Source of the DNA: Candidatus Micrarchaeota archaeon
GTDB lineage: Archaea; Micrarchaeota; Micrarchaeia; Micrarchaeales; CABMGC01
Direction: 5' to 3'
NCBI GenBank assembly: GCA_027328425.1
Contig: DAHVUT010000026.1
Span: forward strand, 1-50,767
DNA length: 50,767 nucleotides
This document shows positions 13,543-25,551 of the stretch, piece by piece. Below the pieces are notes generated by a model. It searched no databases. It had not been told where the DNA came from and was given only the letters and a program-made list of their open reading frames with translations. The translations under genes and the position numbers were made by a program. Positions within the stretch are counted from its first letter, which is position 1. Every line of letters starts with the position of its first letter.

Positions 13543-14283
13543 ATGGGCGATACTGCAATAGCACGGAGCACTGCATCTGCGCATCACGTCGGGTTTGCGC
13601 ACAAAGACGTGGGCGCGCCTCAGAAGACAGCGAAGCAGTTTGATCGCACGGTGCTGTTTGTGGATATGGACGGCACTACGTTGAATTCACTAGGGCCTAT
13701 AGCAAACAAGCATCTTGATTACGTATTCGACATACTGCACATGCCAGAAACTCTAAGAGAACACCGTTATGTGCGCGCTATTTTCGCAAATGTGCTGCTC
13801 CCGCTCTATGAGATGCAGAAGAAGGACAAGGATGGCGTGAACGGCGGTGTGCTCAACGGAGTCAAGCCGCACGACAACATGCTAAAAATAATGCGTAGAT
13901 TCGAGAAGGAAGTCACTATAATAGGGTTCACTGGAAACGAAAACGCCAATCCGAGCAATGGAAATCTAGAGAAGATGCTGAAGAAGCTCCATGAGAAAGG
14001 GATGGATAACGGGATTGTCTATTGCCCTTCTGATGAAAAGTCGAGCTACATACGGAAGTACATGGAGGAAAACGAGACAGCAAGAGTGATCTGGATAGAG
14101 GATAGCACAGTGGCCTTGAAGGACGCAATCCGCGATGGCCTCAGGGGGAACTTCCTGCTTGCGGGGGACTGGTTTAACTTTATTCCTGCAAAGATTGCAG
14201 AGAAGATGCGCATTGTCGGGGTCGGGTACATAAAGGACTACGAGTCTATGGAGAAAGCGATTGGCAAAGCAATAAGGACTTAA
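13543..14283 (+). CDS. HAD-superfamily hydrolase-like protein
   Basis: HAD motif I FVDMDGTT and motif IV-like WIEDS. GC looks lower than the neighbouring genes by eye. Confidence 0.5.
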   Translation: MGDTAIARSTASAHHVGFAHKDVGAPQKTAKQFDRTVLFVDMDGTTLNSLGPIANKHLDYVFDILHMPETLREHRYVRAIFANVLLPLYEMQKKDKDGVNGGVLNGVKPHDNMLKIMRRFEKEVTIIGFTGNENANPSNGNLEKMLKKLHEKGMDNGIVYCPSDEKSSYIRKYMEENETARVIWIEDSTVALKDAIRDGLRGNFLLAGDWFNFIPAKIAEKMRIVGVGYIKDYESMEKAIGKAIRT

Positions 14284-14323
14284 CTTTGATTAGCGAGAAA
14301 CCCCACACCCTTTACGGGTGGGA
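14281..14323 (+). repeat. solo copy of the TnpB-element left-end hairpin motif
   Basis: TAACTTTGATTAGCGAGAAACCCCACACCCTTTACGGGTGGGA matches 22987-23029 at about 36 of 43 positions (about 84 percent). It contains the imperfect hairpin CCCAC(A)CCC-TTTAC-GGGTGGG. Confidence 0.6.
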
Positions 14324-14541
14324 GCATGCCACAGCAAGCTGCACCATTTTCATTTACTTTTAGGCGATTTCGCATACGCCAGTACACGCTATTTGCCCTA
14401 ACTAAAGCTAAATTTCTTTTACATTGGTATAATATATACACATTGTGTATCTAATACTATACCAGGTACCATGCTGTTCCCGTAATTTGCGGAATGCAGA
14501 AACTATTTAAACTTAATCGCAATAGCATAATTGGCGATCAG

Positions 14542-21858: not shown

Positions 21859-22911
21859 CTATAATAACCTTTTGTATTCAGCGAACGTCCTGCGCACCAT
21901 GCGCTGCCACGTGAAGCCCCTTGCATACCCTATCGCCCGCTTCGATGCAGGCCTGGGGTCTGATGAGAGTGCAATCGCTTTCTCGACAATCTCCTCCTCC
22001 GTGCCCTTGAATGCATACCTGCTTGTTTCCTCGGGTATCGTTGCATCCTTCAGCACAAGCGTGTTTGTGCCGCTGGCCATCGCATTGAGTATTGGGAGCC
22101 CCTGTCCCTCGTAAGTCGAGAGGTGCAGATAGGCTGCTGCGCGGCTCATGTACTCCGCAACCGTGTTGTCGTCTGCCCTGTAATGCAGCAACACGTTCCT
22201 ATCCGAGACGTGCTTTAAGCCCTGCATAACGGAAGCCAACACCGGCTGCGCGTCAGGGCTGGAGGTGAATATGTGGAGCCTGGACTTCCTCTCCGCGGCT
22301 ACCTTGTCGAAGACGCGGAGCAGGCCCTCCAGGTTCTTGTGCCTCAGGTGTATCGTGCCGAGGTACACGAAATCGCTGCGTTCGCCCCGCCATACGCGCG
22401 TGCGCAGGTACGCCTCGTCCACGCCAAGGGGTATTATCACGTTCCTCTTCGAAGCATCATACACGCAGTACTGCTTCATGCTGCTTTTCAGCTCCTTCAG
22501 CGTCTGGGAACTGTTGCATATGTTCGTGTCTGTGTCAGCATAGTTCCCTGTGGCTATCCTTTTCACCATGCCGGCAGCTATGTTGAAGCTCTCCGTGAAC
22601 CTTGGCTTATAGCGCTGCTGGCTCCCGCTCCTGTACTTGGAGAGCAGCCTGAGATCGTGCCACATCGTGAGCATCCTGGCCTTGCCCTTCCTCACGCGGA
22701 GCACGTCAGGATACATGAGGTGCACTATGTCCGATCCGGTTATTATGGCGGGGTAGAAAGGACGCACAATTTTAGGCAGCTTGTAAGTGGCTATGAGCCT
22801 CGTAATGGCCTTGCCCCTCACCCCCTTGTAGATCTCTGCAGAATACCTGCTTATGCCGTCGTTTGCGGAGAAGTCGAAGTCGCGGCCTACGAGCGTAACC
22901 CTCATATACAT
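21859..22911 (-). CDS. glycosyltransferase, GT-B fold (GT4-like)
   Basis: C-terminal donor-binding block YLHLSTYEGQGLPILNAMASGTNTLV, typical of the GT4 / glycos_transf_1 family. Confidence 0.75.
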   Translation of the reverse strand: MYMRVTLVGRDFDFSANDGISRYSAEIYKGVRGKAITRLIATYKLPKIVRPFYPAIITGSDIVHLMYPDVLRVRKGKARMLTMWHDLRLLSKYRSGSQQRYKPRFTESFNIAAGMVKRIATGNYADTDTNICNSSQTLKELKSSMKQYCVYDASKRNVIIPLGVDEAYLRTRVWRGERSDFVYLGTIHLRHKNLEGLLRVFDKVAAERKSRLHIFTSSPDAQPVLASVMQGLKHVSDRNVLLHYRADDNTVAEYMSRAAAYLHLSTYEGQGLPILNAMASGTNTLVLKDATIPEETSRYAFKGTEEEIVEKAIALSSDPRPASKRAIGYARGFTWQRMVRRTFAEYKRLL

Positions 22912-23210
22912 GCCTTACTGGTTATCTGGGCAATGCAACCTTTTTATTGTTGGTGCGTGGCGCTTTGCGGCAGAGAGAACCAATTTTAACTTTAATTAGC
23001 GGGAAATCCCATACCATTTATGGGTGGGATAAAAGTAGCGTCCTGACATTTGATAGTTCCACTATTCGAGGAGAGCGAATCTTTTTCTCGACGATACGAT
23101 AAATATGGAATTTTATCACGCCTTTACAGAGAGAAATGTCAGGATCCTAATGAAAGCGAGGGCAGAAGTATTATATATCCTATGGTGTATATATTGCGTA
23201 GAGGTTGTGT

Positions 23211-23333
23211 ATGAAACAGAGAACAAACATACAAATTGAACACAAAACATTAGAGAAGCTACAAAAATTGCGGATAACAAAGAGAGAAACCTACGACGAG
23301 ATTATCAATAGACTGATGGCTTTGGTGAAATAG
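23211..23333 (+). CDS. ribbon-helix-helix (CopG/Arc-like) small protein, translationally coupled to tnpB
   Basis: Hand translation gives MKQRTNIQIEHKTLEKLQKLRITKRETYDEIINRLMALVK*, a beta-strand followed by two helices. The stop overlaps the tnpB GTG (TAGTG). TATA box TTATATAT at 23171-23178. Confidence 0.55.
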   Translation: MKQRTNIQIEHKTLEKLQKLRITKRETYDEIINRLMALVK

Positions 23334-24469
23334 TGGACAGAACATACAAGTTCAGGCTGTATCCGACAAAGGTACAACAGAAGAACCTTGACATGCATAG
23401 GTATATCTCAAAGACACTGTGGAACTGCCTCCTTGAGTTTGCGATAAAGAAGTATGAAGAAACGGGGAAATTTCCCACAAGGTCTCAGTTGCAGTTGGAG
23501 GTAAAGAGCGTGGGCATGCACTCACAATCCTCACAGGAAATCTCTCACAGATTGAACGATGCACTTTTCAGATGCTTCAAACTTAGGAAACAGGGAAAGA
23601 AGGCGGGCTTTCCTAGATTCAGGAACATAGACAGGGCAAAGTCAATCCATTATCCGCAGTCTGGTTTCTCGATAACAGGGAAGAAACTGCGAGTAACGCC
23701 TTTCGGAGAAATCAACACTATAATCCACAGGTCAATCGAAGGCAAAGTAAAGACGCTGTCCCTGAAAAGGGAGTCATCTGGAAAATGGTTTGCGGTATTC
23801 ACGGCGGAACAGGAAGAAAAGTCATTCATATCCAACGGCAAGGAGCAGATTGGAATTGATTTGGGCCTGAAGACTTTTGCCGCTCTCTCCAATGGGAAGA
23901 AGACGGAGAACCCAAGGCATCTTGCAAGGTGGGAGAGGCTGCTTGCGAGGAGGCAGAAACAGTTGTCGGGCAAGAAGAAAGGGAGCAGGAACAGGTTCGA
24001 GGCGAAGAGGAAGGTCGCTACCATTTACGAGAAAGCCCAAAACACAAGGACGGACTTTCTGCACAAAATATCTACGCGGTTAGTGAATGCATACTCTTTG
24101 ATAGGTTTGGAGAGGTTGCGGGCACAGCAAATGGCGGAACGTGCGTATGGCAAACAGATAAACGATGCGGGCTGGAGCAGGTTTGCGAACATGCTGACAT
24201 ACAAAGCTGGGAACGCTGGTTGTCAGATAGTGTTCGTGGACGCAAAGGGAACGACAAAGACCTGCCATGTCTGCGGCAACAGGCAGGACATGCCCCTCTA
24301 TGAGAGGACATACGTCTGCGGCAACTGCGGTTCTGTTACCGACAGGGACATAAATGCGAGCATAAACATATTGCACAGAGCATTACCGATGGGCAATCGG
24401 GAAGTTACGCTTGGGGAGACGCCTACAGGGTTGTCGAAGAACCAAGAAGCTCACATCCTTCAGGGGTGA
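23333..24469 (+). CDS. tnpB: RNA-guided endonuclease TnpB (IS605 OrfB family)
   Basis: N-terminal YKFRLYPT. RuvC-I IGIDLGLK, RuvC-II IGLERL, zinc finger CHVCG...CGNCG, RuvC-III TDRDINASINIL. All catalytic residues are present. Confidence 0.9.
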   Translation: MDRTYKFRLYPTKVQQKNLDMHRYISKTLWNCLLEFAIKKYEETGKFPTRSQLQLEVKSVGMHSQSSQEISHRLNDALFRCFKLRKQGKKAGFPRFRNIDRAKSIHYPQSGFSITGKKLRVTPFGEINTIIHRSIEGKVKTLSLKRESSGKWFAVFTAEQEEKSFISNGKEQIGIDLGLKTFAALSNGKKTENPRHLARWERLLARRQKQLSGKKKGSRNRFEAKRKVATIYEKAQNTRTDFLHKISTRLVNAYSLIGLERLRAQQMAERAYGKQINDAGWSRFANMLTYKAGNAGCQIVFVDAKGTTKTCHVCGNRQDMPLYERTYVCGNCGSVTDRDINASINILHRALPMGNREVTLGETPTGLSKNQEAHILQG

Positions 24470-24504
24470 GGGTATGTCACACCTTTTATGCAAACTATTA
24501 GTGC

Positions 24505-24576
24505 GCCCTGGTAACTCAGTGGTAGAGTGCGAGTTTTGTAAACTCGAAGCCGAGGGTTCGACCCCCTCCCAGGGCT
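24505..24576 (+). tRNA. tRNA-Thr (anticodon UGU)
   Basis: Manual cloverleaf: acceptor GCCCTGG/CCAGGGC, D arm ACTC-AGTGGTA-GAGT, anticodon arm CGAGT-TTTGTAA-ACTCG, T arm GAGGG-TTCGACC-CCCTC, discriminator T. No encoded CCA and no intron. Confidence 0.9.
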
Positions 24577-24622
24577 AGGAGAAAATCGAGTGGAGATTAT
24601 TGCCCGATTAGATAAGTATGCA

Positions 24623-24970
24623 TCAGGAGATATTGTGTAGCAGCTCTTCTATCTCCTTGCCGAAGCCGGCCGTCTCTTTTATCCATAACGGAACGTCGTG
24701 CTCTGATTTTACAAACTTGAGAAGCTCTCCACGTATTTTGGTTGTCTTCGCCTTTAATCCTTTGTTTTTTGTCGTAAGCCCGGCCTGCTCGAGGCTGTCA
24801 CAGGCGTTGAGCACGTGCGCCCCTGCACTGACAAACGCATCCTCGTCCAAGTATGCCCCGCCAAAAGGCTTTTTCTTCATCGCTTTTTGGGCGGTCATGA
24901 TGGCAACCAATATCTCCTGGATAGCGTCGTTCAGCCAACGGCCCGCCATCCGCTCGTAGAAGTCTGGCAT
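24623..24970 (-). CDS. hypothetical protein
   Basis: 115-aa ORF in a low-GC patch with a TATA-like GATTATATAG upstream. No recognisable motif. Confidence 0.45.
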   Translation of the reverse strand: MPDFYERMAGRWLNDAIQEILVAIMTAQKAMKKKPFGGAYLDEDAFVSAGAHVLNACDSLEQAGLTTKNKGLKAKTTKIRGELLKFVKSEHDVPLWIKETAGFGKEIEELLHNIS

Positions 24971-25161
24971 TGTGTGCGCACCTCTATGCGATTATATAGA
25001 AATACGGCACTTTATAGCGTTATGCATTGCCCCAACGATGCAGTTCAAGAGCCAAAGAGATGGAAAAGCCAGCCTAACTGGCCTTCGGACTGGAGGCGGC
25101 ATTAAGCTCGATCATGCATAGCGTTTTTAAATCCTCATAGATACAGAGTTAAGGGATTGGA

Positions 25162-25551
25162 ATGCGTCTTCAAGAACGTCTAATCATCCTGGGCATCCTG
25201 ATTGCAGCCATGCTCGCTTTTATCGCCCTGAATGCATGGGGGATTGCGTTCATACTCCTGCTTGTGTTCCTGGGGCTATCTGGAATAATAGTCATATGGT
25301 GGATCTTCCTGCTTCTGCTCGTGGTATTCGGAATTGCTTTTCTATTCATTGCACCGGCCATACCGGGAGGCGTGAATTATTGGCCTCTGATTCCGATTCT
25401 GGCAGCGATTGCGACAGCCTTCGAGGCATACCGTCTTGGCAAAATCCCGACCGGCATCACCCTTACCAAGAAGGAAAGCGAGAAGCAGGAGCGCGCCAGA
25501 AAATACGCAGAGGACGTGCTCAAGGAGGCGAAGAAGGAAAAAGACAGGTAA
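25162..25551 (+). CDS. hypothetical membrane protein (3-4 TM, charged C-tail)
   Basis: Strongly hydrophobic N-terminal 95 aa and a KE-rich C-terminus. A TTTTTAAAT box lies upstream. Confidence 0.5.
   Translation: MRLQERLIILGILIAAMLAFIALNAWGIAFILLLVFLGLSGIIVIWWIFLLLLVVFGIAFLFIAPAIPGGVNYWPLIPILAAIATAFEAYRLGKIPTGITLTKKESEKQERARKYAEDVLKEAKKEKDR

Follow-up and report, generated by a model that had tools for sequence, protein, structure and literature searches.

A DUF7557 gene in place of tnpA in an archaeal IS200/IS605-type element inserted at a tRNA-Thr gene, and its probable role as an autorepressor cassette

The window analysed here is a stretch of 50,767 nucleotides (nt) of a Candidatus Micrarchaeota archaeon (contig DAHVUT010000026.1, assembly GCA_027328425.1, positions 1 to 50,767 of the forward strand). 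It is one contig of a 542-kb assembly (G000) that is 72% complete; the genomes of its relatives are 0.5–1.1 Mb. The window contains a 1490-bp insertion sequence (IS) of the IS200/IS605 type (22991–24480; this and all of the features of the element and its flanks given below are on the + strand), in which a 40-codon gene of the Pfam family DUF7557 (23211–23333), probably coding for a ribbon-helix-helix (RHH) DNA-binding protein, occupies the place of the Y1 transposase gene tnpA directly ahead of tnpB. The reading that we consider probable is that an IS200/IS605 element inserted 3′ of TTAAC in the promoter of the tRNA-Thr(UGU) gene, and that its tnpA was replaced by an autorepressor cassette.

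The ends of the element were placed by recurring end motifs and by an ortholog of the empty site. The left end (LE; 22991–23040) follows directly on TTAAC (22986–22990), the target-adjacent motif (TAM), which is itself part of the probable tRNA-Thr TATA box AATTTTAAC. It has a subterminal hairpin CCCATACCATTTATGGGTGGG at about 23008–23028 and is homologous to the LE of sister elements in two genomes, G007 and G011. The LE motif TTAGCGGGAAAnCCCAnACCATTTATGGGTGGGAT is found approximately 13 times in the assembly adjoining tnpB paralogues, preceded by TTAAC, TTATC or TTAGC, and TTAAC or TTANC stands before the left end in own-genome copies, in the sister elements and in RHH-TnpB loci of other phyla. 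The right end (RE) has a terminal hairpin (24450–24470) and the end sequence GTCAC (24476–24480). Seventeen distinct RE copies share GAAGCCCAC-N-TTYA-N-GTGGGAG..TG(T/C)CAC and diverge directly after TG(T/C)CAC. Across these copies 94.9% of the hairpin cells are paired, a value reached by none of 500 shuffles, with compensatory changes in four of the eight pairs, and the window hairpin has its own compensated C:G to U:A pair.

The insertion is documented by G004, a genome of the same genus with the orthologous glycosyltransferase gene and tRNA-Thr(UGU) and an uninterrupted spacer between them. Synteny was found through these two genes; a search in the genus for the downstream neighbour gene of 115 amino acids (aa) gave no matches. 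The rejoined window flanks ...AGAACCAATTTTAAC|ACCTT... align through the junction to G004 ...AGAACCAATTTTAA-ACCTT... with no gap of more than 1 nt. This collinearity with the G004 ortholog confirms the insertion, places its ends with a precision of 1 nt and shows that there is no target-site duplication.

The nearest relatives of the window TnpB are encoded in the same-genus genomes G007 (90% identity) and G011 (70%), by elements of the same LE and RE types. Both of these sister elements carry a Y1 tnpA at the position of the RHH gene, with the tnpA stop codon overlapping the tnpB start. Homology between the window and these elements covers the LE, the internal stretch ATGAAAGCGAGGGC..GAAGTATTATATA and the promoter region, including the remaining LE-internal sequence TAATGAAAGCGAGGGCAGAAG (23148–23168), and sets in again at the tnpB start codon. 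Because tnpA stands exactly there in the sisters, the RHH cassette is a replacement of the tnpA of the ancestral element. The window copy has the TnpB catalytic triad and zinc finger, subterminal hairpins in both ends without terminal inverted repeats, and a position 3′ of TTAAC, as in IS200/IS605 elements, and no Y1 TnpA is encoded within it; since tnpA is absent here and present at this position in the sisters, it is a non-autonomous IS200/IS605 derivative. A first-pass annotation of the window had described a TnpA-less element, which is correct for the sequence between its ends. It had also counted a tnpA gene belonging to the element elsewhere as evidence to the contrary, and this is partly the case, in that the sisters in two same-genus genomes carry one. 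The sole Y1 TnpA of the 72%-complete assembly is on another contig (C20:7914), and the ends of the element around it are of the window element's hairpin type. Movement of the window element would need TnpA supplied in trans, and mobilisation by this separate TnpA is conceivable.

The small open reading frame (ORF) starts with ATG at 23211 and ends with TAG at 23331–23333, sharing G23333 with the tnpB GTG (TAGTG), as first annotated. Its match to Pfam DUF7557 (8.3e-10) exceeds the curated cut-off; a literature search for 'DUF7557' found no paper. A search restricted to short proteins (E ≤ 0.01) yields 144 short-form homologues of 37–67 aa that are 74–94% identical to the window protein, and short-form loci number 66 in a genome scan and 237 in a metagenome scan. 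The hosts are Nanoarchaeota, Pacearchaeota, Woesearchaeota, Aenigmatarchaeota, Micrarchaeota, Methanosarcinales, Thermoplasmata and Methanohalarchaeum. Over 276 pairs of short RHH genes, the mean proportion of non-synonymous differences (pN) is 0.12 and that of synonymous differences (pS) 0.83. Because the synonymous sites are saturated and the amino acids have barely changed, the ORF is translated and strongly constrained, and the conservation on which the first-pass annotation had made its reading depend is borne out. Conservation stops after NRL(M/I/L) at residue 36, and the variable tail is coded by the overlap with the partner gene.

DUF7557 also occurs in a long form, as the N-terminal ~35 residues of proteins of 73–85 aa that were surveyed in 60 related genomes. 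These, which include antitoxins of 77–80 aa, occupy the position classic for an antitoxin gene, ahead of genes for RelE/ParE-like (84–98 aa) or MazF/PemK-like (104–111 aa) proteins, the toxins being 82–111 aa overall, and one such long-form/RelE pair is located on contig C4 of the same genome as the window. The N-termini of the two forms are homologous over ~35 residues (TTIQI...RETYDEIIN). Unlike a type II antitoxin, the window protein totals 40 aa, with no C-terminal neutralising extension and no toxin partner; the short form corresponds to the N-terminal antitoxin domain without the toxin-binding tail. It is far more conserved than the long-form antitoxins and is linked to selfish nuclease genes.

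The small gene of the first-pass annotation is genuine and conserved, and we infer its RHH fold from several similarities. The predicted pattern in the small protein is a beta-strand (TNIQI), a helix A and a helix B beginning at TYDEI; matches to VAPB_antitox, a VapB-type family, recur below threshold (2e-4 to 2e-2) with both the short and the long form, and an hhalign comparison with a CopG sequence gives a probability of 41%.

The promoter region has a layout that is shared by related loci. A TATA-like box TATTATATAT of the predicted RHH-tnpB promoter is located at 23169–23178, confirming in substance a TATA box noted earlier, and has equivalents in the related loci, where it lies upstream of the hexamers described here in all cases and approximately 27–35 nt before the RHH ATG in most. 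The proposed RHH operator (23183–23210) consists of the phased hexamers TGGTGT (23183–23188), TTGCGT (23194–23199) and TTGTGT (23205–23210), the last abutting the ATG. In most of 30 tabulated loci the ATG-abutting hexamer is repeated exactly 11 nt upstream, with a mean of 5.27 of six matching positions as against 3.53 in shuffles (maximum 4.0 in 1000 shuffles). The two copies change together (TTGTGT/TTGTGT, TTATGT/TTATGT, TTATAT/TTATAT), and the same TATA/hexamer arrangement precedes the endonuclease-linked RHH copies. From this geometry of TATA box, hexamers and ATG, transcripts are expected to be leaderless in most loci; three repeats and a short leader that includes a Shine-Dalgarno sequence are seen in the window (GAGG, 23201–23204) and in a few other loci (e.g. 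L057).

The third base of the hexamer covaries with residue 6 of the protein, which is predicted to be in the DNA-reading strand. Asn6 occurs with TGTGT in 11 of 11 loci of the genome set and 35 of 35 informative loci of the metagenome set, and Thr or Ser at this position with TATGT in 14 of 14 and 32 of 32, such that the rule (Asn with G, Thr/Ser with A) has no exceptions in 92 informative loci, which are related by descent; three further metagenome loci are ties and uninformative. This covariation fits what is expected of a protein and its predicted operator, and the phased hexamers at 23183–23210 are likely to be the RHH operator. The palindromes at 23041–23144 had been put forward as the RHH binding site. 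They form the stem of an independent ~105-nt element that is found outside any IS in another genus, and were rejected as the operator in favour of the hexamers.

The genes following the short RHH gene vary much more than the RHH gene itself. Among 28 assessable high-identity loci of the genome set, the partner is TnpB in 21 (three of them pseudogenised or fragmentary), TnpA and then TnpB in one, an HNH endonuclease in two, and another gene or none in three. The metagenome set comprises 70 distinct loci, three of which have too little downstream sequence; in the 67 that are assessable the partner is TnpB (34), HNH (6), DUF559 (2) or TnpA (1), and 24 have no match to the tblastn queries. Ten of the unmatched loci were sampled and four encode NUMOD3+HNH, NUMOD3+DUF559 or endonuclease VII proteins, so that HNH, NUMOD3, DUF559 or endonuclease VII partners account for at least 12 of the 67. 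Look-ups of individual loci agree with these tallies. Between loci the RHH proteins are 61–94% identical (70–94% to the window protein) and the TnpB partners 27–64% (30–41% to the window TnpB). The small gene and its partners have different histories, because the window TnpB is closest to tnpA-linked copies. The GC content at third codon positions is 0.45 in the RHH gene and lower than in every 40-codon window of tnpB (0.50–0.80), the comparison value for the neighbouring host gene, 0.75, being likewise higher; this fits a separate history, though only weakly.

The endonuclease partners are homing-endonuclease-like and not transposon genes, and there are no IS ends at those loci. The cassette with its hexamers is found directly before HNH, NUMOD3-HNH, NUMOD3-DUF559, DUF559 and endonuclease VII-type genes at L057, L062, L048, L130, L163, L190, L216 and L225, and at L130 an intein-containing gene adjoins it. 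Candidatus Methanohalarchaeum thermophilum HMET1 has at least five RHH-TnpB units (L070, L071, L074, L075, L081). Two RHH-linked TnpBs of this genome have the RuvC-II Glu changed to Gly (TIVVGDL), a kind of rearrangement that Altae-Tran et al. describe, and in two units tnpB is frameshifted while the RHH ORF is open. At L034 (G030:C30:27118–27219) a Y1 tnpA, not followed by a tnpB, has its start overlapped by the gene of a 40-aa short RHH (MKITTIKIS...); there are no TTGTGT-type repeats upstream of this RHH gene, which is therefore a more distant variant of the pairing.

The window tnpB (23333–24469, from GTG to the end of TGA) codes for a 378-aa protein that matches NCBIfam guided_TnpB (NF040570; 2.4e-75) and Pfam OrfB_IS605, Cas12f1-like_TNB and HTH_OrfB. 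The RuvC residues and zinc finger first read from the sequence are supported by these matches and by alignment with ISDra2 TnpB (E 3e-45), in which D176 (GIDLG), E260 (GLERL) and D339 (DRDIN) align with the catalytic residues; the CxxC...CxxC motif is intact, giving a canonical D-E-D triad and C4 zinc finger. The 3′ part of the presumed omega RNA scaffold, together with the RE, spans 24380–24480 and has three hairpins conserved with the G011 element, with two compensatory pairs between them. An Rfam search of 22500–25200 at E ≤ 10 matched the tRNA alone, so that the comparison with known omega RNA families that had been suggested returned no family, and RNA folding of 24290–24504 gave a z-score of -0.05, no better than shuffles. 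The structural evidence for the presumed omega RNA is confined to the conserved terminal hairpins. Because the RE ends at 24480, the predicted guide template is the 24 nt of right flank (24481–24504; ACCTTTTATGCAAACTATTAGTGC) between the RE and tRNA-Thr(UGU) (24505–24576), which starts 35 nt past the tnpB stop, as first noted; this assignment is supported, and the template has no other match at two or fewer mismatches in the assembly. Of the two guide sources first suggested, the tRNA flank and the tRNA 5′ stem, the flank is retained, and the stem would be included only in a guide longer than 24 nt.

Together these features suggest the following mechanism. RHH dimers would bind the hexamers, which are placed downstream of the TATA box and ahead of the start codon, the classic site of repression in archaea, and would thereby autorepress the single promoter predicted to drive both the RHH gene and tnpB. 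Translation of tnpB is probably coupled to that of the RHH gene, because the GTG shares a base with the RHH stop codon and a GGTGA Shine-Dalgarno sequence lies 6 nt before it, and the nuclease would be held at a low, buffered level. The omega RNA scaffold would be formed by the 3′ end of tnpB and the RE, with the guide read from 24481 onward, and TnpB with this RNA would cleave the empty site that rejoining of the flanks restores, TTAAC plus ACCTTTTATGCAAACT....

Several observations weigh against this autorepressor reading. The AlphaFold2 monomer model of the small protein is all-helical and poor (pLDDT 68), and sequence and profile searches of the PDB with the small protein gave nothing significant. 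The middle hexamer of the window is degenerate (TTGCGT), and its three repeats and leader depart from the usual arrangement of two repeats and no leader. As few as one or two evolutionary events may account for the Asn/Thr-G/A covariation. The element is single-copy here and has a 105-nt insertion in the LE region, and its activity is only presumed.

The first-pass annotation had offered two roles for the RHH protein, as a repressor or as a partner of TnpB; the repressor is the better supported and the partner reading fits less well. In the latter, TnpB would be a toxin that the RHH protein neutralises by protein-protein contact, blocking the guide-target duplex, much as Altae-Tran et al. 2023 (PMC10691335) proposed a toxin-antitoxin pair for an archaeal RHH/MazE-TnpB clade. 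This published proposal, the homology of the small-protein domain to the N-terminus of genuine antitoxins and the toxin-antitoxin-like order of a small first gene overlapping the next all speak for it. We nonetheless regard it as quite unlikely. The 40-aa form is without the ~40-residue C-terminal part of the RelE- and MazF-paired forms, and a near-invariant protein stands before unrelated partners (TnpBs with 30–55% identity, Y1 TnpA, HNH, DUF559, endonuclease VII), such that the constant feature is the operator DNA and not a partner protein; moreover, the window TnpB has the canonical triad, without the RuvC-III D-to-H change that defines the clade. A simpler alternative, that the small ORF is a chance ORF or the dead remnant of an antitoxin gene truncated by the IS, is suggested by its equivalence to the N-terminal half of an antitoxin and by the RelE pair elsewhere in the genome, and strikes us as extremely improbable. 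The ORF is inside the element, between the LE and tnpB, and the uninterrupted G004 ortholog has no toxin-antitoxin gene at the site; the short form is 70–97% identical in hundreds of loci with saturated synonymous sites. A disrupted toxin-antitoxin locus was rejected on these short-form homologues, the pN and pS values and the empty site.

The protein could also act on DNA or RNA steps of the element itself, by binding the LE or RE, influencing excision or integration by a TnpA in trans or modulating omega RNA biogenesis, or could act as an activator. In most loci the cassette and the LE hairpin are no more than ~100 nt apart, the protein took the very position of tnpA, and some RHH proteins are activators (Moon et al., 10.64898/2026.09.24.754181). 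However, the same cassette precedes homing-type endonuclease genes without IS ends, and neither the LE hairpin nor the RE hairpin shows a copy of the hexamers. The repeats also occupy the repression position named above, between TATA box and ATG, and we consider a role in these steps or in activation unlikely, although less so than the toxin reading. Autorepression of the RHH-tnpB promoter is the reading that we retain.

The insertion has probably altered the promoter of the adjoining tRNA gene. In this genome the TATA-like boxes of tRNA genes fall at about -34 to -24, and for tRNA-Thr(UGU) this slot is now filled by RE sequence. Rejoining the flanks puts AATTTTAAC in the slot, as in G004 (other members of the genus have CTTAAAAAT there), and the insertion has therefore separated tRNA-Thr from its probable TATA box; the right flank (24481–24504) formerly lay between the two. 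This is the sole tRNA with that anticodon in the incomplete assembly. Read-through from the element may now transcribe tRNA-Thr(UGU), in which case an RNase P cut at 24504/24505 would set both the 5′ end of the tRNA and a 24-nt guide, a proposal for and against which we see equal weight.

Other IS ends are also found near tRNA genes. At L121 (G003:C18) the GGTTAAAC box of tRNA-Thr(UGU) directly adjoins a different TnpB element, which lies on the other strand, at L118 (G011:C29) a sister element stops 47 nt before tRNA-Leu(CAG), and at C6:1200–1340 of the window's own assembly an IS hairpin is located ~35–60 nt upstream of tRNA-Ala(UGC). Because IS ends sit at tRNA promoters in G003 and G011, the AT-rich TAM may direct such elements into promoters.

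A broader and joint proposal is offered more tentatively, as somewhat doubtful in its entirety. The DUF7557 unit, with its TATA box, its phased hexamers and a core of 36 codons, may be an autoregulated and portable cassette of ~150 bp that arose from an antitoxin DNA-binding domain, has been exchanged across archaeal phyla among unrelated selfish nuclease genes (TnpB, TnpA, HNH, NUMOD3, DUF559 and endonuclease VII) and uses an Asn6-G/Thr6-A code, and with this would go the read-through into tRNA-Thr(UGU) with RNase P trimming the guide.

Several further features of the element and its genome are of note. The ~105-nt structured element inserted in the LE region (23041–23147) is closed by an 11-bp inverted repeat (TCCTGACATTT / AAATGTCAGGA) and is absent from the sister elements, in which GGGATGAAAGCGAGGGC of the LE leads directly into the TATA box. 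The insert occurs once in this assembly and has no Rfam match, and a 79%-identical copy is located in a non-IS intergenic region of another genus (L140; G014:C27:12284–12391), downstream of a metallo-beta-lactamase-fold gene. Stem pairing is kept between the two copies by compensatory changes, and the insert could be a miniature inverted-repeat transposable element or a small structured RNA. Miniatures of ~50 nt, in which the start of the LE is fused to the end of the RE (TTAAC|TTTGATTAGCGAGAAACCCCACACCCTTTACGGGTGGGAGCATGCCAC), occur in the window (14281–14332) and at C10:2941–2975 of the same assembly, and resemble the PATE core-deletion derivatives of IS605-type elements of Haloquadratum (PMC3119063). 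For a partial genome of 542 kb there are many IS200/IS605 elements, with 12 TnpB matches and at least 12 distinct RE hairpin ends. TTAAC occurs at 0.44 per kb (both strands of the assembly) as against our own estimate from base composition of ~1.5 per kb, and the TAM looks under-represented.

The analysis provides a probable function for a Pfam domain of unknown function, DUF7557, and would extend RHH throttling of IS605/TnpB from bacteria to archaea, with another protein family and promoter type. The small protein and its predicted operator (36 conserved residues and a 6-bp site), with a natural Asn/Thr-G/A switch, offer a model of RHH specificity, and the RHH-hexamer pair could perhaps serve archaeal genetics as a compact regulatory part. 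The window copy has a defined TAM (TTAAC), a predicted guide, an empty-site ortholog and tnpA-carrying sisters, a basis on which to study TnpB homing in a DPANN archaeon. The split tRNA promoter, if true, would make a host tRNA dependent on transposon transcription.

Contrary to what had at first been thought, an RHH-tnpB arrangement has precedents (10.1101/2023.11.20.567912, 10.64898/2026.09.24.754181, PMC10691335). RHH genes inside IS605-family elements were described by Zedaveinyte et al. (10.1101/2023.11.20.567912), who first noted Arc-like proteins with TnpB, homing endonucleases and toxin-antitoxin systems, and Moon, Zedaveinyte, Wiegand and Sternberg (Moon et al. 2026; bioRxiv 10.64898/2026.09.24.754181) report that Arc binds and represses the transposon promoter in IS605 elements. 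The system described here is best read as an archaeal counterpart of these bacterial Arc-IS605 repressors, the control principle being already published for bacteria, and not as a new system. As in bacterial Arc-IS605 elements and IStrons, a tiny gene for a DNA-binding protein, here with a predicted RHH fold, lies within the IS boundaries; tnpA-less arc+tnpB elements also occur, and relatives are found beside homing endonucleases and in toxin-antitoxin systems. Binding sites on the protein's own promoter are shown for Arc and proposed here. The differences are that the hosts are archaeal (DPANN and Euryarchaeota) with TATA-box promoters, that the family is DUF7557 and a Pfam scan at E ≤ 1 gives no Arc family, that the RHH gene is co-directional with tnpB and overlaps its start whereas in many bacterial elements arc and tnpA are divergent from tnpB, and that the predicted operator is a series of direct repeats, phased at 11 bp and reaching up to the ATG. 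The window adds a non-Arc archaeal family with an antitoxin link, evidence of cassette-like exchange, covariation between a residue and a base, the documented replacement of tnpA by an RHH gene together with an ortholog of the empty site, and a split tRNA promoter.

Three other known systems share part of this organization. The RHH/MazE-TnpB clade (PMC10691335) is likewise archaeal with a small RHH/AbrB gene directly upstream of tnpB on the same strand; its members have a rearranged RuvC-III (D to H), are non-mobile and were read as toxin-antitoxin pairs, in contrast to the window element with its canonical triad, intact IS ends and insertion relative to an ortholog. The D-to-H change is absent from the window TnpB (D339) and from 13 of 13 other RHH-linked TnpBs aligned, two of which show the RuvC-II E to G, and membership of the window TnpB in the clade was rejected as the catalytic residue D339 is retained. 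Type II antitoxins paired with RelE/ParE- and MazF-like toxins share the N-terminal ~35 residues, and differ in having the neutralising C-terminus and the toxin that are absent here. Canonical IS605/IS1341-group elements such as ISDra2 and ISHp608, and PATE derivatives (Haloquadratum, PMC3119063), have in common with the window element the subterminal hairpins at both ends, insertion 3′ of a pentanucleotide with no duplication of the target, a TnpB with its omega RNA at the right end and miniature end-only forms in the same genome; what sets the window element apart from them is the probable regulator cassette at the position of tnpA.

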